20,430 bases of DNA from a virus (lineage: Duplodnaviria; Heunggongvirae; Uroviricota; Caudoviricetes), in IMG/VR virus record IMGVR_UViG_3300031718_000177, one strand, 5' to 3'. Positions 3,287 to 17,064 of this stretch are shown one piece after another. Within the stretch, counting starts at the first letter, position 1. Every line of letters starts with the position of its first letter. The position numbers and the translations under genes are program-made. The notes below the pieces were generated by a model. The model did not search any database. It saw nothing but the letters and a program-made list of their open reading frames with translations, and was not told the origin of the DNA.

Positions 3287-3321
3287 ATTATTAACCTAGT
3301 AATTTACTCTGATACTATATA

Positions 3322-8900: not shown

Positions 8901-9878
8901 TCAAAAGATTGCTGGCGACTTCGGCTTAAGAATGAAGTCAACAGTTTCTACGCTTAGGTATTTGTTGAAATCGTCATCATATTTGTAGTGTTTCGCTATT
9001 CTATCGTGGATTTCTTTTTTGTGGAAAAAGTTCTCCGGTTTAGATGTGGTTACATATTCGCTTTCAATTCCTAGGTTTACGTCCTTAAACCAGTCGTGGT
9101 AAGTTTCCAGAGGATGAGTAACAGGTAGAACGATCATTGGCGGTTGATATCCAAGTCGTGTCAATTCAACATCATCGAAAATCAAGTGGGCAAATGCCTT
9201 GTTCAATCCGCACTTGTGAAGATGGGCTCCGTGTCTTGAACACCACGGATGTGATTTCACTACAATTTTGCCGTCAAGAGCTAATACATTCTTTATTTTG
9301 TACAGTGCCTCTTGGGGCGTCTCATTCTCGCAATGATCCAATACGTCAAAAAGAAGTACGATGTCATATGGAGCGTTTTCTGCTACCGCATTCCAATCAG
9401 TTGTAAGTAAGCAATTTTCCTCTAATTCTACTCTATCCCACTTATCTTCTATAATATCAAATCCGATCGATTTTGTTGGCTTTTGTTTCATTGCGCTAGT
9501 AACCACTCTGCCTTCCCCGCATCCGAAATCTAGAAAACTCAAATCTTTAAGATAATCAGTTACTACGAATTGAATAATTGATTCTGCCAATGTCTCCTTT
9601 GCTTCTTCTGTCTCGGCTAACACTGACGGCTCGACAGCTAAAGGCCAATTCATTCCCTCCAGGGATTCACGCAAGATTTGGAACTCGTCGGCGTACTCCA
9701 TGTGATAATCCCCCAGCGACCGTTTCAATTGCCGCAATTCTTCCATCATTTGATGATATACACTTTGCTCCCGAAGTTCGTCTCTTATCTCGCGTAGCAA
9801 CTTTACAGTCATTTCTTGATGCTGCAACTGACTTTCTACTTGTGCTATCTTTACTGCTAGTTCTTCTTGGTTAAACAT
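8901..9878 (-). CDS. Class I SAM-dependent methyltransferase, paralog 3 of 3, with N-terminal coiled coil
   Basis: FLDFGCGEG, IGFDI, YDIVLLFDVLDH, HPWCSRHGAH; heptad-rich N-terminus. Confidence 0.85.
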   Translation of the reverse strand: MFNQEELAVKIAQVESQLQHQEMTVKLLREIRDELREQSVYHQMMEELRQLKRSLGDYHMEYADEFQILRESLEGMNWPLAVEPSVLAETEEAKETLAESIIQFVVTDYLKDLSFLDFGCGEGRVVTSAMKQKPTKSIGFDIIEDKWDRVELEENCLLTTDWNAVAENAPYDIVLLFDVLDHCENETPQEALYKIKNVLALDGKIVVKSHPWCSRHGAHLHKCGLNKAFAHLIFDDVELTRLGYQPPMIVLPVTHPLETYHDWFKDVNLGIESEYVTTSKPENFFHKKEIHDRIAKHYKYDDDFNKYLSVETVDFILKPKSPAIF

Positions 9879-9894
9879 ACTAGATTAATAGAGT

Positions 9895-10719
9895 ATGGTT
9901 AAGCCACTTTTTAGATGGACTGTCGGGGACGTTTCGTGGCAGGGCTTGGAAATACTTGCCGAGTCGATTGAAATGGCTCTTTCTATCTACGGCGACAGGT
10001 TTGATTTCCTAGTTTGCTATAATTCGCTGGAAGATAAAGAAGATGACAAACGACTAGATTTCATTAGAAGTATGATATACGGCAAACCAATTACGTTGAG
10101 GGAATCAAAGTGGGAAGAATGTTGTTTACCAGATGTATGCGGCAATTCTAGAAAGCCAGATGGCACATTTGAGAAAAACGGCAATTTCGCTCACGGCACG
10201 TTATGGAAATTAGCTCCGGCAAAATTAGACATTGATAGACACGAAATCATTATGGATAATGATATTATCATATTAAAGCAGATACCAATTATAGAGGAGT
10301 GGTTAGAGCAAGATGAAAAAGTGCTAGTGCTCAATGAGCATATCAAGTTTTACGGAAGATATACGCCTTTTTTTGACCCTAGTTTACCCCCATATAATAG
10401 CGGATTAATGGGATTACCACCTAATTTAGATTTCGGTGCTGAAGTGCGAGGATTTTGGTCAAAATATACAGATGAAAAACATGAGCCATTTTTCAATCTA
10501 AGCCATGCGGAGGAACAAGCTTGCTGTGTTGGAACTTTGATAAACTTGCCTCACTTTGTTATTGATAAAAAATATGTAAGAGAAGTTCTCGCAGAGCATA
10601 AAGGAGTCCATATAACGGGGCAGGAATATGCTATTCACATGGCTCAGGCGAATCGTATCGAACCGCACTGGGCGTGGCTCGAATACCAAGAAATCAAAAA
10701 AAAATATGCAATATTTTGA
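9895..10719 (+). CDS. Nucleotide-sugar transferase-like protein (GT-A, GT8-like); paralog of 19556..20254
   Basis: KPLFRWT, LWKLAP, HEIIMDNDII (DxD), YNSGLMGLPP, EEQA. Confidence 0.65.
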   Translation: MVKPLFRWTVGDVSWQGLEILAESIEMALSIYGDRFDFLVCYNSLEDKEDDKRLDFIRSMIYGKPITLRESKWEECCLPDVCGNSRKPDGTFEKNGNFAHGTLWKLAPAKLDIDRHEIIMDNDIIILKQIPIIEEWLEQDEKVLVLNEHIKFYGRYTPFFDPSLPPYNSGLMGLPPNLDFGAEVRGFWSKYTDEKHEPFFNLSHAEEQACCVGTLINLPHFVIDKKYVREVLAEHKGVHITGQEYAIHMAQANRIEPHWAWLEYQEIKKKYAIF

Positions 10720-10900: not shown

Positions 10901-11962
10901 ATGATATTAGAAGTTAATTTCCAAAATTGTTGTATGTCGCAAAAAATATTATGTAAATGCGATTACTGTGGAAAGAAATTTCCTAGGACCAAACATAGCA
11001 TTATTCGATCTCATCTCATAACAGAATCGGATAGTTGCGGCAGCAAAAGGTGTAAAACAAAAAAGAGAGAGGAATCTAATTTAAAAGTTTATGGAGAAAA
11101 ATATCCTACTCGTAACAACACTCTTCCTTATGCTGATGTGTATTTAACAGATGTACAAAAATCTATTATATGTGGTTCCTTATTAGGTGATGCCTCTATT
11201 ACTAGGGGAGCATTAAATCATAATTGTAGGTTCACCAAAACTCATTCTATGAAACAGAAAAATTATCTGATTCACATAGCCAATGAATTAAAACCATTTA
11301 CAAGTTATACAAAAGAAGGATATAGCTCTGCAAAAGGAAAGAAATATGAAAAGATACAACTCTCTACTTTTTCTCATCCAATATTCACTGAACTATATAA
11401 AATATGGTACAATTCAAAAGGGACTAAGATAGTTCCAAAAGATATACGACTAGACCCACTATCTGTTGCTGTATGGTTCTGCGATGATGGTAGTCAGGAT
11501 GAAAGTAGAAACTTTACATTTCACACAAATGCGTTCTCCAAAAAAGAATGTCAAATTCTAGTTAATCAATTATCTTCATTTGGTATAAGTTCTTATATTT
11601 ACTTAAAAAGCAATAAATATTATGTTATTAAAGTTCGCAGCGAATCATATGATTGTTTTATTGATTTAATTTCGCCTTTTGTACATGATTATATCAAATA
11701 TAAAATTAAAAGAAAAATTAAAAAAATCTTTGATCCATCTTTATGCGATGGGGGTCTTGGAACTTTTTTTGAAGAAACAAAGAAGGAATGGCGTTCTTCA
11801 ATTTGTATAAATTATAAAACAATCCATTTAGGACGCTATTCAACGCAAGATCAAGCCATTGCAATTCGCAAACTCGCAGTAGAAATAAGAGCATCCGGCG
11901 AAACAAATCCAGAAAAGTTCAAAGAACTTAGACGGACTTTCCAGAAATCACTGCGACAATGA
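10901..11962 (+). CDS. Free-standing LAGLIDADG (LAGLIDADG_2-type) homing endonuclease with N-terminal Zn-binding region and C-terminal AP2-like domain
   Basis: IICGSLLGDASI and SVAVWFCDDG motifs; CKCDYCGK...CGSKRC; KEWRSSICINYKTIHLGRYSTQDQAIAIR (AP2-like). Confidence 0.85.
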   Translation: MILEVNFQNCCMSQKILCKCDYCGKKFPRTKHSIIRSHLITESDSCGSKRCKTKKREESNLKVYGEKYPTRNNTLPYADVYLTDVQKSIICGSLLGDASITRGALNHNCRFTKTHSMKQKNYLIHIANELKPFTSYTKEGYSSAKGKKYEKIQLSTFSHPIFTELYKIWYNSKGTKIVPKDIRLDPLSVAVWFCDDGSQDESRNFTFHTNAFSKKECQILVNQLSSFGISSYIYLKSNKYYVIKVRSESYDCFIDLISPFVHDYIKYKIKRKIKKIFDPSLCDGGLGTFFEETKKEWRSSICINYKTIHLGRYSTQDQAIAIRKLAVEIRASGETNPEKFKELRRTFQKSLRQ

Positions 11963-12720
11963 AAGAACTTTCTATCCTCTACATGCAACGTGCGGGCGGC
12001 CACGCTATAGCAAACTGGCTTACTAACCAACTTCCAACAACTAACTATGTTTTTATCAACAATATCTTTCACTATGATAACCGCCTTCTTTTCAATAAGC
12101 CGCTCGTAAAAAATAACACAGAATATCTAATTTACACAATAGAAGACATGTCTATCGGGCAAGCAGAAAAAACCAAACAACGACTTTTATATAAACATAA
12201 TTCAGATAAACTTAACGTACTAATTATTCGCGACCCTTACAATTTATTTGCTAGTAGGTACGCGAGGCAAATAGGCGAAACAAACCCAATTACAGGCGAA
12301 AAGCAACCCGAAAGTATAAAGTCCTGTAATTGGAGTCCTCTCAAAACTTGGACTGGTAAAAGTGCTATTGATTGTTGGCGTAATCACGCACAAGAAGCCC
12401 TCTCGCATTTCAATATAGATTTATGTATTTTCTACAACCGATGGATACAAGACAAATCTTACCGGCAACAGACAGCCAAAGATTTAGGACTTAATTTTAC
12501 AGATAGAGGAATAGATGAGGTAAGCACACATGGCGAAGGGAGTAGTTTTGATGGACTAACTTACCAAGGAAAAGCGTCAGAAATGGCAGTAGATACTAGG
12601 TGGAAAAAGTATAAATATGACTCTTATTTTTGCTCATTGTTTGATGACAGAATACATACACTCGCACAAATGCTATTCGGATTTAACTATAAGTCAGAAT
12701 TATCCAACGTAGCTATGTGA
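11959..12720 (+). CDS. Sulfotransferase-like protein (PAPS-binding P-loop fold)
   Basis: MQRAGGHAIANWL (5'-PSB-like) and LIIRDPYNLFASR (3'-PB-like); ATGA overlap with the upstream gene. Confidence 0.65.
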   Translation: MKELSILYMQRAGGHAIANWLTNQLPTTNYVFINNIFHYDNRLLFNKPLVKNNTEYLIYTIEDMSIGQAEKTKQRLLYKHNSDKLNVLIIRDPYNLFASRYARQIGETNPITGEKQPESIKSCNWSPLKTWTGKSAIDCWRNHAQEALSHFNIDLCIFYNRWIQDKSYRQQTAKDLGLNFTDRGIDEVSTHGEGSSFDGLTYQGKASEMAVDTRWKKYKYDSYFCSLFDDRIHTLAQMLFGFNYKSELSNVAM

Positions 12721-13205
12721 GACAAATTACGGTACTTACCATTGTAATCTAATCCATAACCCACTACAAATACCTCTGGAATCTTAAAGCCAAAATAATG
12801 CGGCTCTATATCTATCAGTCGGTCGATTTCTTTCCACAATAACACGACACTACTAATGCTAGATGCTCCTTCGTCCTTGATGTAATCAGTGATACGCTCC
12901 AAAGTTTTACCCGTATCAAATATATCATCTACTATGAGAACATCACGTTTGTAAATATCTGGTGAGTGTGCGTCAAGCGGAATCAAAACATTTCCGGTTG
13001 CTTTTGTGCCATTATAGCTTGATGCCCGAATTAAATCGACATGTAGAGGAACATCAATATGCCGTATAAGGTCAGCCAAGAAAACTACACTGCCTGTTAG
13101 AACACCCAGAATAGTTAGGGAACTATCTCGATAGTCGTTAGAGATTTCCGACCCCAATCTAGCTATCGTACTCTTAATTTCAGATTCTTTAATGAGTAGT
13201 TTCAT
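12687..13205 (-). CDS. hpt: Hypoxanthine phosphoribosyltransferase
   Basis: GVLTGSVVFLADLIR, RASSY, VLIVDDIFDTGKTL (PRPP-binding loop), FVVGYGLDY. Confidence 0.93.
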   Translation of the reverse strand: MKLLIKESEIKSTIARLGSEISNDYRDSSLTILGVLTGSVVFLADLIRHIDVPLHVDLIRASSYNGTKATGNVLIPLDAHSPDIYKRDVLIVDDIFDTGKTLERITDYIKDEGASSISSVVLLWKEIDRLIDIEPHYFGFKIPEVFVVGYGLDYNGKYRNLSHIATLDNSDL

Positions 13206-13215
13206 ATTATCCTAC

Positions 13216-13256
13216 AAAAAAACACGGCAACAGTTTAGGGCCGTTACCGTGTTTTT
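13216..13256 (-). terminator. Intrinsic terminator-like hairpin about 10 nt upstream of the hpt start
   Basis: Minus strand: AAAAACACGGTAAC-ggccctaaact-GTTGCCGTG-TTTTTTT. T-runs on both strands, so it may act in both directions. Confidence 0.7.
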
Positions 13257-13288
13257 GGGGGCCGTGCCAGTCAGAGACCAGCGGCAAA

Positions 13289-13413
13289 TCCACCATCCTA
13301 TTTTTAAATTGGTTAGGAATCCAATAGAAGGCAGGTCTTACCCCACCCTTCCGCCATCCTGTTTGTTAAACGGGTTAGGAATCCCGTGGTAGCGTTACCG
13401 CCCACCCCACCCT
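13289..13413 (-). ncRNA. Tandem two-unit structured RNA candidate (hairpin plus H-type pseudoknot per unit; 64 and 61 nt)
   Basis: Units AGGGTGGGGT...ACGGG-ATTCCTAA-CCCGT-TTAACAAAC-AGGATGGCGGA and AGGGTGGGGT...ATTGG-ATTCCTAA-CCAAT-TTAAAAAT-AGGATGGTGGA. Compensatory stem changes; loop TCCT is complementary to downstream AGGA. Confidence 0.6.
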
Positions 13414-13440
13414 ATTACTAAGGACAACTATATATCAACC

Positions 13441-13484
13441 GAGACGCATCTTTTACCATTAAGTAAAATTGCTGTTCGCGTCTC
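13441..13484 (-). ncRNA. ACAGCA stem-loop motif, copy C
   Basis: GAGACGC-gaACAGCAaTT-ttacttaatggtaaaagat-GCGTCTC. Confidence 0.6.
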
Positions 13485-13492
13485 TCGTTGTT

Positions 13493-13645
13493 TCAATGTT
13501 TCTTGTTTTTCCTTGCGGCTTCCTCGGTAAACTCACGCGGGGTCTTTGGTGTATTCCTCGGTTTACCATTTTTAAGGTCATCAATAACTTTCCTAAGTTC
13601 CTTTGCTCGTTTCTCTTGTGCTTCTTTATCTGATTTTTTTGTCAT
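13493..13645 (-). CDS. Small basic hypothetical protein (50 aa); not in the ORF track
   Basis: GGAG RBS, then MTKKSDKEAQEKRAKELRKVIDDLKNGKPRNTPKTPREFTEEAARKNKKH*. Confidence 0.65.
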   Translation of the reverse strand: MTKKSDKEAQEKRAKELRKVIDDLKNGKPRNTPKTPREFTEEAARKNKKH

Positions 13646-13656
13646 TGTTTTCTCCG

Positions 13657-13815
13657 TCATCCCTTAAACAGTATAGCAGCTTGTACGATAAGAAGAACCA
13701 ATCCAAATCCTCCGCATATATTGGTAGCGGGGTAATTGTAGTGTTCTATAATAGTTGCTACTGTAATTAGTGAGATGCCACCAATACCGAGAACAAAGTA
13801 CCGGAAAGTTTGCAT
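13657..13815 (-). CDS. Small membrane protein with two TM segments (52 aa); not in the ORF track
   Basis: MQTFRYFVLGIGGISLITVATIIEHYNYPATNICGGFGLVLLIVQAAILFKG*; fits between motif copy B and the 50-aa ORF. Confidence 0.6.
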   Translation of the reverse strand: MQTFRYFVLGIGGISLITVATIIEHYNYPATNICGGFGLVLLIVQAAILFKG

Positions 13816-13828
13816 CACAAAAATCCAC

Positions 13829-13878
13829 GAAACACCAGATTAACAACAAAATGTTTTTGGAATTGCTGTAGGTGTTTC
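13829..13878 (-). ncRNA. ACAGCA stem-loop motif, copy B
   Basis: GAAACAC-ctACAGCAaTT-ccaaaaacattttgttgttaatctg-GTGTTTC. Confidence 0.6.
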
Positions 13879-13886
13879 TTTGGTTC

Positions 13887-14150
13887 CTAAGTTATTCCTT
13901 GTTGACCACATTGAGGACAAGTTAATTCATCTGGGCAATCCGTCGCACGTTTAACTGCCTCTTTCAGCCACTTCTTTTCGTTTAATTGAGAAAAATAATT
14001 GGCAGCACTTGGTTCTACACTAGCAGTAAGATTTCCATCCTTATCTTTGCGTATCTCAAACTCAACATCCTCCAATAATCTATCGCCAAAAGCGTACCCA
14101 TCAATCAATGCATATCCTTGTTGACCACAAGTAGGGCAATTAAAAGACAT
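13887..14150 (-). CDS. Small zinc-ribbon-like protein (87 aa)
   Basis: CPTCGQQG at the N-terminus and CPQCGQQG at the C-terminus; AAGGA RBS. Confidence 0.7.
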   Translation of the reverse strand: MSFNCPTCGQQGYALIDGYAFGDRLLEDVEFEIRKDKDGNLTASVEPSAANYFSQLNEKKWLKEAVKRATDCPDELTCPQCGQQGIT

Positions 14151-14152
14151 CG

Positions 14153-14245
14153 TTATTTCCTTCTAGGGGGGCAAGTCCGTATTTTAATTGGATGCCCGTC
14201 CTGCCATATTATTTTGATTTCCTGTTCAATAACGCTCCACCACAT
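14153..14245 (-). CDS. Possible 30-aa peptide, translationally coupled to the DUF2828 gene
   Basis: TAATG stop/start overlap; MWWSVIEQEIKIIWQDGHPIKIRTCPPRRK*; ends 2 nt before the next ATG. Confidence 0.35.
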   Translation of the reverse strand: MWWSVIEQEIKIIWQDGHPIKIRTCPPRRK

Positions 14246-15954
14246 TATACCTCTTCTCCTGCCTTTGCATATTCCTTTTCAAGTACTTTTACTTCATCGT
14301 AGGATATACTTTCGTCATTGTTTATAAGTCCGAATATGGGCTGACTCAAAAAGTTCTTCATCCCTGAAATTGGGGTTTCATCTACCTTTTCCTTGGCAAC
14401 AAAATCCTTTGGCTTCTCGGTATCGGTCGTGCTTAATCCCATAAGTGCCTTCAAGTTCACCGGGTCAAAGCCGCCTATGATATAGACGCCCTTATCGTTC
14501 ATTTGTGCGGGGAAATCAGTGCCAGCACCATTGACAAACCACCAGATAATACGCATCTCATTTAAGCCAACAGAGTTTAATTTCTCCATCGCAGCTTCAT
14601 AATTAGTTTGAGCATTATCGCCAACTGGGTTAAACTGCATATCACTAACAACAAGTAATGTCTCAGGATATTGATCCAATGAAATCTCAGGATGTTCCCT
14701 ACGAACTTTAACCAGTAAATCTATGACGGACTGGAAGTTAGTAGAACCCATAGCGTTAAGCCCACTAACTTGCTGAACTCGCTCACTAAAGCCGCCTTCA
14801 AGTTTAACTAAGTGACTGTGGCTACTAAAAGCAACCACTGTGTCCTTAAAATACCCTACATTCAAGGCACTGAAGACGAGTCCCATACTCAAACATACTT
14901 CAAGAGGCGTAACATCACCCATCATCTTGCCCCAACTCATAGAGCCGGATGTATCCAATGCACAGAGAACATTGCCTAGATTATGTTCCCGCATAGGAGC
15001 AAGCAGTGCCTCAAATTGCTTATCGAATATCATCCCTTGGATTAGACTTGGATTCTTGCTTGCCGCCCTAGTCAATTCATAAGGATAACCATTAAACTTG
15101 ATTGTCTTTTGACCTAATACCCATTCTCGCAAACGCTCTACTTGACCATGACGCTCAAATACTGTCTGGTTGTCCTTACCTTTACGGGATGTAAAACCAA
15201 GCATTGCCTTGCCGGGAATACCATTAAAATGAACCGACTCAAAATCTCCACGAGACATTTGCTTTTGAAATATGTGTCCAGTGCCAGAGGACTTCAACTT
15301 ACGGTATTCACCGTAACTTATACCCAGAAACTTACAAAGTCCCTTAGCCCAAGCGATACGCTTCTTATCCCTATCTGTACGAGCGTACTTAGCAGACCTA
15401 ATTTGAGGGAGATATTTCCTTAGAAGCTGGTCGCCTAGATTACGACTTACTAATTCATATACCTTGGTGCGATCCAGAGCATCTACCAAGGGCTCGGTAA
15501 TCAAATCCTTCCAACAACCGAAAACAGGGATTAGATGTAGATTGCGGTAGAGCATCTGCTCATACTGACGAACTCCACTAACAGCAAGCCATCTAATCGC
15601 CTTGTAGAACTCGTCTCTACGACCATAGCCGGTCTGTGTTTCATCAATACCCTTAACAGTGGGCTTTCGCGTAATAAGACGCAAACCAAAGATTATCGCC
15701 AACGCTACCGATTCGTCGTCGGCAAATATCTTCTCCATATCAGTATTGACTTCTTCCGGCTTACGACGAGCGTAAGTACCGGCCTTAGACCAGTAGTTTA
15801 GACAAGCACTAAGTTTATCAAAGCCAGTGGTAGCGTATGACTTAGCCCCATTCCAAGTAACCGCAGTAATAGCATTTTCATCAATGGAACGGTGATTTTG
15901 CGTGTATTCTTCGTCCATTAGAGCGTCTTTCGTACAAAAAGTCGGAACACGCAT
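14245..15954 (-). CDS. DUF2828-family / TROVE-like + vWA domain protein (Ro60/Rsr-related)
   Basis: GYGRRDEF, LIPVFGCWKDL, KYLPQ, YRKL, YPYEL helical region; vWA MIDAS ALDTSGSM, GSTNFQSV, LLVVSDMQF, IIWWFV. Confidence 0.8.
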   Translation of the reverse strand: MRVPTFCTKDALMDEEYTQNHRSIDENAITAVTWNGAKSYATTGFDKLSACLNYWSKAGTYARRKPEEVNTDMEKIFADDESVALAIIFGLRLITRKPTVKGIDETQTGYGRRDEFYKAIRWLAVSGVRQYEQMLYRNLHLIPVFGCWKDLITEPLVDALDRTKVYELVSRNLGDQLLRKYLPQIRSAKYARTDRDKKRIAWAKGLCKFLGISYGEYRKLKSSGTGHIFQKQMSRGDFESVHFNGIPGKAMLGFTSRKGKDNQTVFERHGQVERLREWVLGQKTIKFNGYPYELTRAASKNPSLIQGMIFDKQFEALLAPMREHNLGNVLCALDTSGSMSWGKMMGDVTPLEVCLSMGLVFSALNVGYFKDTVVAFSSHSHLVKLEGGFSERVQQVSGLNAMGSTNFQSVIDLLVKVRREHPEISLDQYPETLLVVSDMQFNPVGDNAQTNYEAAMEKLNSVGLNEMRIIWWFVNGAGTDFPAQMNDKGVYIIGGFDPVNLKALMGLSTTDTEKPKDFVAKEKVDETPISGMKNFLSQPIFGLINNDESISYDEVKVLEKEYAKAGEEV

Positions 15955-15992
15955 TGAAACATTTTTGTTTTGGGAAGTGCTGTTGGTGTTCC
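15944..15992 (-). promoter_or_regulatory. ACAGCA stem-loop motif, copy A: forms the whole 5' leader and encloses the ATG of the DUF2828 gene
   Basis: GGAACAC-caACAGCAcTT-cccaaaacaaaaatgtttcaATGc-GTGTTCC. Confidence 0.6.
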
Positions 15993-15999
15993 TGCGAAT

Positions 16000-16028
16000 A
16001 TCTTACGACAGGACGAGACGAATTTCAA
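16000..16028 (-). promoter_or_regulatory. Sigma70-like promoter TTGAAA-N17-TAAGAT
   Basis: Minus strand ttgaaa ttcgtctcgtcctgtcg taagat; predicted start at about 15993, at the base of motif copy A. Confidence 0.6.
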
Positions 16029-16055
16029 GTGAATTTTCGCTTTTAAGAGGAAATA

Positions 16056-16283
16056 TTAATCTTCCGGTGTTTTTGCCTTATCGGTGCGGCTATCTCGTGG
16101 GTAAGGCGGGCCTATTTCCAGTCGTTTGGCGAACTCAACGTCGTTTTTATATCTCGGCTTAAACTTCATTGGCTTAGCATCTTGTTGTATTTCAACTCGC
16201 CCATGTAAAGGTGGGAATGGCGTTCCTATTAAAGAAGGGACTTCCTGATGTTCCTGCTCTAGCCAAGTATTAAAATCTCGCAT
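16056..16283 (-). CDS. Small hypothetical phage protein (probable start ATG 16283, MRDFNTWLEQE)
   Basis: ATG preceded by CTATATATAAGAGT; M-x-x-F-x-x-W-L-E N-terminus. Confidence 0.6.
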   Translation of the reverse strand: MRDFNTWLEQEHQEVPSLIGTPFPPLHGRVEIQQDAKPMKFKPRYKNDVEFAKRLEIGPPYPRDSRTDKAKTPED

Positions 16284-16305
16284 ACTCTTATATATAGCGA
16301 GCAAA

Positions 16306-17064
16306 ATGAAAAAACTCCTTGTAGGTTCTGTTTATGGTCCATCTGAGCGAAATAGCCAATGGTATAAACTCCAATTAGATTTTCTAGGGAAAACTACGGC
16401 AGATTTTGACCATGCGGTTTATCTATCGGGAGCGGACAAGAGCTTATTTGGACAGTCAATTATTCTAGACACAGTTGAAAATAGGTGGCTTTCGACGACT
16501 GTGGATAATGTTACAGAAAACTTCTGTCCGCATATAGAAGGCGTCCAGAAAATTGTAGGATATTTTAATACAAATGATTACTCGCATTGCCTCATATTGG
16601 ACAGTGATTGTTTCCCTATTACGGAGAATTGGATGTCTTTGCTTATAGAGAAGATGGGGAAATACAGGTATGCCGCTCCGATTAGATACGAAAATCTAGA
16701 AACATGGTCTCATCCTAGTTTTCTTTTTATTAAGGAAAAGGGCGAAGTTAGTTTCATTCCAACAAAACCGGTTAAAAACCTGCTTAATGAAGATATAATT
16801 GACTGCGGCTGCAATATACCACTAAGAGATACATTCCCATTAATTCGCTCCAATAAATACAATCCACATCCAATATTTGGAGGAATATATTGGGACATCT
16901 GCTACCATCATTGCTGTGGGAGTAGACAGCCAATTACAAGGAGCATTAGCAAGGGATATTATGCCGGCGAGCAACATGAAGAAATAGAGAAACATCTATT
17001 TGAGAGCTTGGTAAGAGACCCTAAACGATATTTACAAAAGCTCAGATGTACAATTTCGGTCTAG
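16306..17064 (+). CDS. Glycosyltransferase-like protein (GT-A fold)
   Basis: HCLILDSDCFP (DxD motif); cluster context. Confidence 0.6.
   Translation: MKKLLVGSVYGPSERNSQWYKLQLDFLGKTTADFDHAVYLSGADKSLFGQSIILDTVENRWLSTTVDNVTENFCPHIEGVQKIVGYFNTNDYSHCLILDSDCFPITENWMSLLIEKMGKYRYAAPIRYENLETWSHPSFLFIKEKGEVSFIPTKPVKNLLNEDIIDCGCNIPLRDTFPLIRSNKYNPHPIFGGIYWDICYHHCCGSRQPITRSISKGYYAGEQHEEIEKHLFESLVRDPKRYLQKLRCTISV

Follow-up and report, generated by a model that had tools for sequence, protein, structure and literature searches.

What is the 208-nt stretch (positions 13206-13413) that lies directly before a gene for hypoxanthine phosphoribosyltransferase (hpt) in an uncultivated giant phage, and does it act on that gene? 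The preliminary description of the locus reported two adjacent units, each with a hairpin and a possible pseudoknot, followed by an intrinsic terminator, and considered a tandem purine-sensing attenuator for hpt, a type III antitoxin mimic or a partner RNA of a Ro60-like protein. We analyzed the whole stretch of DNA around the element (20,430 nt, hereafter the window), which belongs to a contig of 292,671 bp (~293 kb) and is phage-like in content, encoding a terminase ATPase domain and a LAGLIDADG endonuclease. Along the minus strand, the following features succeed one another.

13414-13424, minus strand: promoter-like word TCCTTAGTAAT, a near-match to TACT-N3-TTAAT with one core mismatch, ending 1 nt before unit 1
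13350-13413, minus strand: unit 1, 64 nt, from direct repeats, MAFFT alignment and covariance model R1 (90.5 bits)
13289-13349, minus strand: unit 2, 61 nt, from direct repeats, MAFFT alignment and covariance model R1 (82.9 bits)
13256-13295 (core 13261-13285), minus strand: hairpin H3, -14.5 kcal/mol
13216-13256, minus strand: intrinsic terminator, -19 kcal/mol, z-score -3.8
13210-13213, minus strand: Shine-Dalgarno sequence AGGA of hpt, 4 nt before the ATG and 2 nt past the U-run
12687-13205, minus strand: hpt, 172 aa, PF00156 and TIGR01203, with its ATG at 13205

The hpt product matched PF00156 at 3.6e-28 and the equivalog TIGR01203 at 167 bits, against a cut-off of 150; judging by its sequence, in which the PRPP loop is intact, it is a genuine hypoxanthine phosphoribosyltransferase (HGPRTase). 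The protein is a singleton among 5.8 billion protein clusters and its nearest relatives are 51-57% identical. Since the named relatives belong mostly to Planctomycetota and one relative of the Ro60-fold protein encoded upstream is labelled Gemmataceae, the source is probably a phage of Planctomycetes. The AGGA of hpt is placed as in the internal operon genes of the window, and no sigma-70-like promoter was detected between the terminator and hpt. At its other end, hpt overlaps the 3' end of a convergent 253-aa ORF (11959-12720) by 34 nt (12687-12720).

The two units were recovered by a direct-repeat search as three repeat families spaced by 61-64 nt (22 nt at 86%, 20 nt at 80% and 10 nt at 100% identity), and their MAFFT alignment showed 46 invariant columns out of 64. 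The blocks AGGGTGGGGT, GGATTCCTAACC, TTTAA and AGGATGG.GGA are invariant in both copies, and the first two words have no further occurrence elsewhere in the window. When the covariance model R1 was run on the window only the two units were matched, the next best score being 6.9 bits. Two of the six two-tier G4-type clusters of the window, which might form G-quadruplexes, fall inside the units.

Unit 1 opens with a G-block, AGGGUGGGGU, and continues with a first hairpin (P1, 13388-13406) bearing a GUAA loop, and a second hairpin (P2, 13370-13387), whose loop AUUCCUAA spans 13375-13382; an A-rich linker then leads to the tail AGGAUGGCGGA (13350-13360). The same order was found in unit 2, with P1 at 13330-13347 (loop GUAAGA), P2 at 13308-13325 (loop 13313-13320) and the tail AGGAUGGUGGA at 13289-13299. 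The two adjacent units of the preliminary description are thus confirmed, and every statement it made on their sequence (a hairpin with GGTAA at the loop, an invariant AUUCCUAA loop, an A-rich linker and AGGATGGYGGA) holds on the minus strand. We read each unit as a two-hairpin module, P1 plus P2. The differences between the copies are clustered, with 13 of the 18 differing columns lying within a single 16-column stretch that corresponds to the first hairpin, while four columns make up two compensatory pair changes in P2 and only three fall in the linker and tail. The sequence AGGAU occurs in both tails, and UAGGAU is common to the unit 2 tail and the hpt ribosome-binding site.

The covariation reported for the 5-bp P2 stem was verified. 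The stem reads ACGGG/CCCGT in unit 1 and ATTGG/CCAAT in unit 2, with two pairs changed on both sides (C-G to U-A and G-C to U-A) around the invariant loop and all five positions paired in both copies. In a simulation with six random substitutions in 38 nt, the stem stayed intact, with two or more pairs changed on both sides, at a frequency of about 3e-4 (about 3 in 10,000 trials; the test was post hoc). Two compensatory pairs combined with an invariant loop point to selection on the P2 stem, within a post hoc comparison of two paralogous copies at a single locus; template-switch mutation is a one-step source of compensatory hairpin changes without selection.

The folding energies of the individual parts were less uniform. 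P1 folded with -7.5 kcal/mol in unit 1 and -8.0 kcal/mol in unit 2, presents GUAA within its loop and uses the GGUGG(G) of the conserved G-block, one of its pairs being U-A in unit 1 and U-G in unit 2. The P2 hairpin folded with -6.3 kcal/mol in unit 1 and only -2.5 kcal/mol in unit 2, and neither single unit folded better than its shuffled versions (z-scores of +0.26 and -0.61 for units 1 and 2). As for the H-type pseudoknot suggested between loop and tail, its complementarity stood up to analysis: the loop UCCU(A) is complementary to the tail (U)AGGA, 8-9 nt downstream, with -4.3 and -5.6 kcal/mol. The geometry is sound, with 5 bp in the first stem, 8 nt in the loop, 8-9 nt in the A-rich linker and 4-5 bp in the second helix. 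The pairing shows no covariation because both of its partners, loop and tail, are invariant in the two copies. Two other partners are equally available to the loop UCCU, namely the 5' AGGG of its own unit and the ribosome-binding site of hpt.

Composition and strand provide further evidence on the nature of the element. Its GC content is 0.505 against 0.381 for the whole window, which places it in the top 0.15% of 208-nt windows. The minimum free energy was -74.9 kcal/mol for the minus strand and -59.0 kcal/mol for the plus strand, an advantage of about 16 kcal/mol for the minus strand, and the G-U pairs found in P1 of unit 2, in H3 and in the terminator would become A-C mismatches if the plus strand were transcribed. 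A 66-codon ORF on the plus strand (13192-13392) covers the terminator, H3, unit 2 and part of unit 1 in antisense; the repeat periods within it are 61 and 64 nt, neither a multiple of three, and it was taken to be spurious.

These results support a structured, strand-specific RNA of the minus strand that ends in a terminator directly before hpt. We consider a functional RNA probable on four grounds, namely where the differences between the units fall, the compensation seen in two pairs, the raised GC content and the asymmetry between the strands. The opposite reading, that the stretch has no RNA function and is either a tandem duplication in decay or two sites where a protein binds the DNA, lying before an ordinary operon terminator, appears rather unlikely. 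It would agree with the presence of two copies only, the lack of any homologue in the searches described below, the unremarkable folding energies of the units and the 8-mers CGGTAACG common to the units and the terminator region, which by our estimate are within chance expectation for a 200-nt stretch. It would leave unexplained why the differences are not placed at random (one hairpin being hypervariable, two pairs compensatory and long blocks invariant), why GC is raised in the stretch and why one strand is preferred.

The region between the units and hpt contains two hairpins. The H3 core (13261-13285) is lengthened by pairing of UGGUGG from the unit 2 tail with CCCCCA; the hairpin holds the sequence TTGCCG (13282-13287), and its G-U pairs exist on the minus strand only. 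The terminator consists of an A-tract, an 11-bp core stem with two G-U pairs that is extended by A-U pairs, a 7-nt loop (CCCUAAA) and seven U, and it ends 10 nt before the ATG of hpt, as had been described. H3 and the terminator together folded with a z-score of -3.8. A scan of every run of at least five T on both strands of the window returned this terminator as the sole hairpin with a U-run below -14 kcal/mol. A consensus terminator scanner missed it, since its stem runs into the A and U tracts. The only strong terminator of the 20-kb window is therefore positioned before the last gene of its strand block, hpt, and not after it; no terminator was found past hpt on its own strand.

It had been proposed that TTGCCG could pair with the 5' arm of the terminator (CGGTAA). 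The complementarity is present; the antiterminator itself was rejected on energy, since the forced UUGCCG:CGGUAA structure reached -14.5 kcal/mol against -35.6 kcal/mol for H3 plus terminator, a cost of about 21 kcal/mol. The best duplex of any upstream segment with the terminator 5' arm was similarly weak, at -8.3 kcal/mol compared with -20.6 kcal/mol for the terminator. H3 forms first during transcription and, together with these energies, this makes default termination the thermodynamic expectation.

Control by a leader peptide was not adopted. Two short ORFs of 14 and 29 codons (uORF1 and uORF2) both start in AGGAUGG words, have no Shine-Dalgarno sequence at a workable distance and are of lengths expected by chance. 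The second one (13296-13207, minus strand) begins at an AUG in the tail of unit 2, traverses H3 and the terminator and ends with a TAA 1 nt before the hpt ATG; the position of this stop recalls the geometry of the pyrBI leader and is probably due to chance here. Readings of the element as a CsrA sponge or as an anticodon-loop mimic were not adopted either.

Relatives of the element were then sought. No relevant family was detected by Rfam at gathering thresholds in the whole window, and searches at E up to 10 with 1.2 kb and 231 nt returned no riboswitch or ToxI-type family, the best weak match being the sRNA Atu_Ti4 with 20.7 bits against a gathering score of 40. The Rfam comparison suggested at the outset thus gave no family. 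ARAGORN and Rfam found no tRNA-like element within the stretch, and the units were no longer regarded as candidates for degenerate tRNAs or a tmRNA fragment. Queries of 1.7 kb and 132 nt had no blastn match (E up to 10) among 50,697 phage records. The covariance model R1 found no further unit in relatives of 436 kb and 38 kb or upstream of 32 other viral hpt genes, whose products are 28-46% identical; no homologue of the units emerged.

Seven pattern scans (five of IMG/VR, one of a metagenome collection and one of a genome collection) yielded chance matches only, one of them in a 2.7-kb contig of RNA-phage size. With a loose pattern, the chance stretches numbered at least 118; the full three-block pattern gave no viral, five metagenome and five genome matches, none with a stem around the loop. 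Four viral matches to a further pattern (three of them one common sequence) had no stem flanking ATTCCTAA. The 25 matches to the G-block junction pattern proved to be one repeated, non-intergenic sequence common to several contigs, which we read as a putative DNA methyltransferase gene.

These searches bear directly on the possibility of a tandem metabolite riboswitch, in which a purine-related ligand, bound by two pseudoknot aptamers, would govern whether transcription ends before hpt. In its favor, the order of a possible promoter, leader, terminator, Shine-Dalgarno sequence and gene is that of attenuation leaders, including preQ1-I and SAM-II, where a structured 5' region precedes an intrinsic terminator, a ribosome-binding site and a gene. 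Here, likewise, a structured domain (13289-13413) stands upstream of a terminator directly before hpt. The aptamers of preQ1-I and SAM-II are H-type pseudoknots, and they have in common with the units a short hairpin, an A-rich linker and a tail that pairs with the loop; the geometry of the units would suit them. Tandem aptamers are found in the glycine and NAD+-I riboswitches, which like our element place two homologous modules before one expression platform. Unlike riboswitches, the element has no Rfam match, no credible antiterminator, no covariation in the pseudoknot and no conservation beyond one locus. No riboswitch model, preQ1-I (RF00522) included, came near its gathering score; the mutually exclusive antiterminator overlapping the sensor that an attenuator requires is not borne out by the energies given above; and an aptamer conserved with covariation across homologous loci did not emerge, the sequence being absent from the 32 viral hpt loci and from the genome and metagenome scans. 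The purine attenuator of the preliminary description therefore fits in layout and is otherwise unsupported, and we consider it unlikely. A novel class of tandem pseudoknot sensor RNA, with a purine-pool signal or a phage or host protein gating read-through into hpt, would be similarly unlikely; if true, the phage would regulate an auxiliary metabolic gene through an RNA of its own that has no counterpart in cells.

We judged it very improbable that the locus is a type III toxin-antitoxin system or that the phage here imitates a type III antitoxin of its host. The ToxIN and CptIN systems consist of tandem pseudoknot repeats, a terminator and a toxin gene of about 170 aa, and the locus reproduces this layout in that its pseudoknot-capable repeats precede a terminator and a 172-aa gene, as in the ToxI, CptI and TenpI arrays; an AAAAAU is also present in unit 2. 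However, the gene that follows codes for an authentic HGPRTase, whose PRPP loop is intact, and not for an endoribonuclease of the ToxN/AbiQ type. PADLOC gave only weak local matches of its product, over the PRPP loop, to PsyrT and ShosT, which are toxins with a PRTase domain. Moreover, the units are only two and, at 61-64 nt, longer than ToxI and CptI repeats, which measure 36-45 nt, and no ToxI-type Rfam match was obtained. The antitoxin mimic proposed earlier thus shares an arrangement with this locus and not the identity of its gene.

The genes upstream of the units, on the same strand, raise a different possibility.

14245-15954, minus strand: DUF2828/DUF7788 protein with a Ro60 fold (phrog_850 at 9e-61; AlphaFold and Foldseek)
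13887-14150, minus strand: zinc-ribbon protein, between the Ro60-like gene and the units
13657-13815, minus strand: 52-aa membrane protein, between the Ro60-like gene and the units
13494-13645, minus strand: 50-aa basic protein, between the Ro60-like gene and the units

Sequence searches, including PDB, gave no link between the DUF2828/DUF7788 protein and Ro60. An AlphaFold model calculated from 24 homologues reached a pLDDT of 81.6 and a pTM of 0.82, and the top eleven Foldseek matches were all Ro60/TROVE proteins, including the Ro60 of Thermus phage phiLo (E from 2e-8 to 9e-6 over about 550 aligned columns, full length). The modelled structure thus supports the name "Ro60-like" at the level of the fold, in agreement with the preliminary description. 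The vWA MIDAS motif DxSxS is invariant in the 24 homologues; relatives of the protein are 44-67% identical, and many of them are encoded on long contigs. The 52-aa ORF (MQTFRYFVLGIGGISLITVATII...) is a probable two-helix membrane protein that is absent from the list of ORFs of 60 aa, and the overlapping 61-aa ORF with a TTG start (13664-13849) is probably spurious.

The unit RNA lies 0.83 kb downstream of the Ro60-fold gene. Characteristically, a Ro60 gene is accompanied on its own strand by one or two partner RNAs no more than 4 kb away (PMC4201824), and the Ro60 gene of phage phiLo is adjoined by two Yrl RNAs (PMC12135203). Like YrlA/YrlB and Yrl1/Yrl2, the units (13289-13413) are tandem RNAs on the strand of the Ro60-fold gene (14245-15954) and less than 4 kb from it. 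Y RNAs are defined by a stem closing the 5' and 3' ends, which holds the Ro60 site and a GNCGAA motif, and YrlA by a tRNA-like domain (PMC4201824). In contrast, our units measure 61-64 nt instead of 80-130 nt, their purine-rich 5' and 3' ends are unable to pair, GNCGAA is absent from 13206-13430, and neither CGAA nor a tRNA-like domain was found in the units. As a canonical Y RNA the element is therefore not supported, even if the fold of the protein and the position and strand of the RNA agree with that proposal.

In a broader form the same observations belong to a tentative reading that is a close rival of the one we prefer, namely a discrete, stable small RNA of about 200 nt, which would originate either from its own gene or from the 3' UTR of the operon upstream and would end at the terminator. 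Acting in trans, it would use its two identical AUUCCUAA loops and its G-rich single strands to capture a protein or target RNAs; candidate partners are the Ro60-fold protein and the Shine-Dalgarno-like AGGA of mRNAs, and hpt would receive leak-through. A strong hairpin with seven U is the typical 3' end of a small RNA, and here it is the sole one of its kind in 20 kb; default termination is strongly favored, and the candidate promoter TCCTTAGTAAT abuts unit 1. The characteristic association of Ro60 genes with partner RNAs points the same way. Against a small RNA stand the missing Y-RNA features, as far as that form is concerned, the core mismatch in TCCTTAGTAAT, the gap of only 10 nt with no promoter between the terminator and hpt, and the absence of such an RNA from the nearest relatives with a Ro60-like gene.

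Those relatives are informative in another respect. The two IMG/VR relatives carry Ro60-like proteins 51% and 65% identical and have neither hpt nor the unit motif; tRNA and tmRNA genes adjoin their DUF2828 genes. Similarly, when 19 viral hpt loci were scanned against Rfam, four had a tmRNA gene within 2 kb of hpt.

L173, 284-633: tmRNA gene, with hpt at 674
L165, 1323-1669: tmRNA gene
L190, 681-1023: tmRNA gene
L161, 3582-4045: tmRNA gene

At L173 a sigma-70-like promoter, the tmRNA gene and hpt follow in succession, and the gap of about 40 nt between tmRNA and hpt contains no terminator, which suggests that the stable RNA and hpt are co-transcribed. Viral hpt genes beside tmRNA genes thus define an RNA-gene neighborhood, and both sets of adjacent RNA genes speak for a small RNA. 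In the 436-kb relative, an 88-nt stretch (L003, 3720-3807) was called as tRNA-Phe with the anticodon aaa (Rfam tRNA, 47.9 bits) and ends 35 nt before the Ro60-like gene; it could be a tRNA-like Y RNA of the YrlA type rather than a tRNA.

Whether the locus is a switch for the gene or a small RNA depends in part on where transcription starts. In the region 12500-16300 no sigma-70-like promoter was found except at 16000-16028, before the Ro60-like gene. The motif TACT-N3-TTAAT has exact copies at 1074-1085, 3290-3301, 9884-9895 (minus strand) and 9878-9889 (plus strand), each of them 3-6 nt ahead of the start codon of a gene without a Shine-Dalgarno sequence, and at 9878/9895 a divergent pair uses one palindromic copy in common. 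Many genes of the window have no Shine-Dalgarno sequence and carry this motif in its place. Looser variants precede the starts at 16306 and 17764. The motif looks like a phage-specific promoter or an initiation signal for leaderless or short-leader mRNAs, and TCCTTAGTAAT, abutting unit 1, is a possible candidate promoter with transcription starting at unit 1, which we regard as a lead only. The phage may have its own polymerase with start-proximal promoters, in which case hpt might not depend on read-through.

Both the small RNA and a regulatory leader stand as explanations of the element. The one we prefer, at a probability of roughly 0.38, is a cis-acting leader that sets terminator read-through into hpt. 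The repeat, the covarying stem, the strand, the terminator and the identity of hpt are shown by the data; co-transcription with the gene, default termination and any sensor function are inferred. We propose the following sequence of steps. Transcription would enter from upstream, or from the phage-type promoter abutting unit 1, and would stop by default at the terminator, 10 nt before the start codon. As hpt has a Shine-Dalgarno sequence and no detectable promoter, its product would be made solely from read-through transcripts. The duplicated modules, each presenting the AUUCCUAA loop on the covarying stem, the A-rich linker and an AGGAU tail able to close a pseudoknot, would set the read-through level. 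A factor would act on the modules or on RNA polymerase, either by antitermination of the nut/put or conAn kind or as a protein bound to the two identical loops; such a factor-dependent mechanism is favored over a metabolite riboswitch because no convincing antiterminator helix was found. The position of the only strong terminator in 20 kb just before hpt, the TCCTTAGTAAT word at the edge of unit 1, the covarying P2 stem, the GC island, the minus-strand folding, the operon-like AGGA of hpt and the recurrence of AGGAU in both tails and in the hpt ribosome-binding site argue for the cis-acting leader, whereas the lack of a homologue and hence of phylogenetic covariation, the weak antiterminator, the folding of the units no better than shuffles, the -2.5 kcal/mol of P2 in unit 2, a possible phage polymerase and template switching as a source of the compensatory changes argue against it.

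Cis-acting RNA elements that carry polymerase through terminators are documented, conAn being one example (PMC8191782). The element resembles nut of lambdoid phages, put of HK022 and conAn2 of pLS20 in being an RNA of a phage or mobile element upstream of a terminator to be read through (PMC8191782). Hairpins are a further common trait, here including one with a GUAA loop of the GNRA type, and just as the ConAn1 gene precedes conAn2, the gene for the 50-aa basic protein lies just upstream of the units. Unlike the units, nut, put and conAn have no duplicated 62-nt modules, and the likeness is one of layout with no known sequence similarity.

The sequence observation from which this work started is therefore correct and its interpretation partly supported, the specific identities of riboswitch, antitoxin and Y RNA finding no support. 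If functional, the element would represent a new family of structured RNAs in a lineage of giant phages that has hardly been sampled, and would either show a phage metering a stolen purine-salvage enzyme or provide a Ro60-fold phage protein with an RNA partner. At present it is a candidate for experiment that leaves current views unchanged.

Finally, three stem-loops on the minus strand (13441-13484, 13829-13878 and 15944-15992) sit between genes of the Ro60-like operon. Their basal stems of 7-8 bp differ in sequence and enclose a common ACAGCA(A/C)TT just inside; the first one, 27 nt before unit 1, folded with a z-score of -4.2. They could be processing sites, protein sites or stabilizers of 5' ends.
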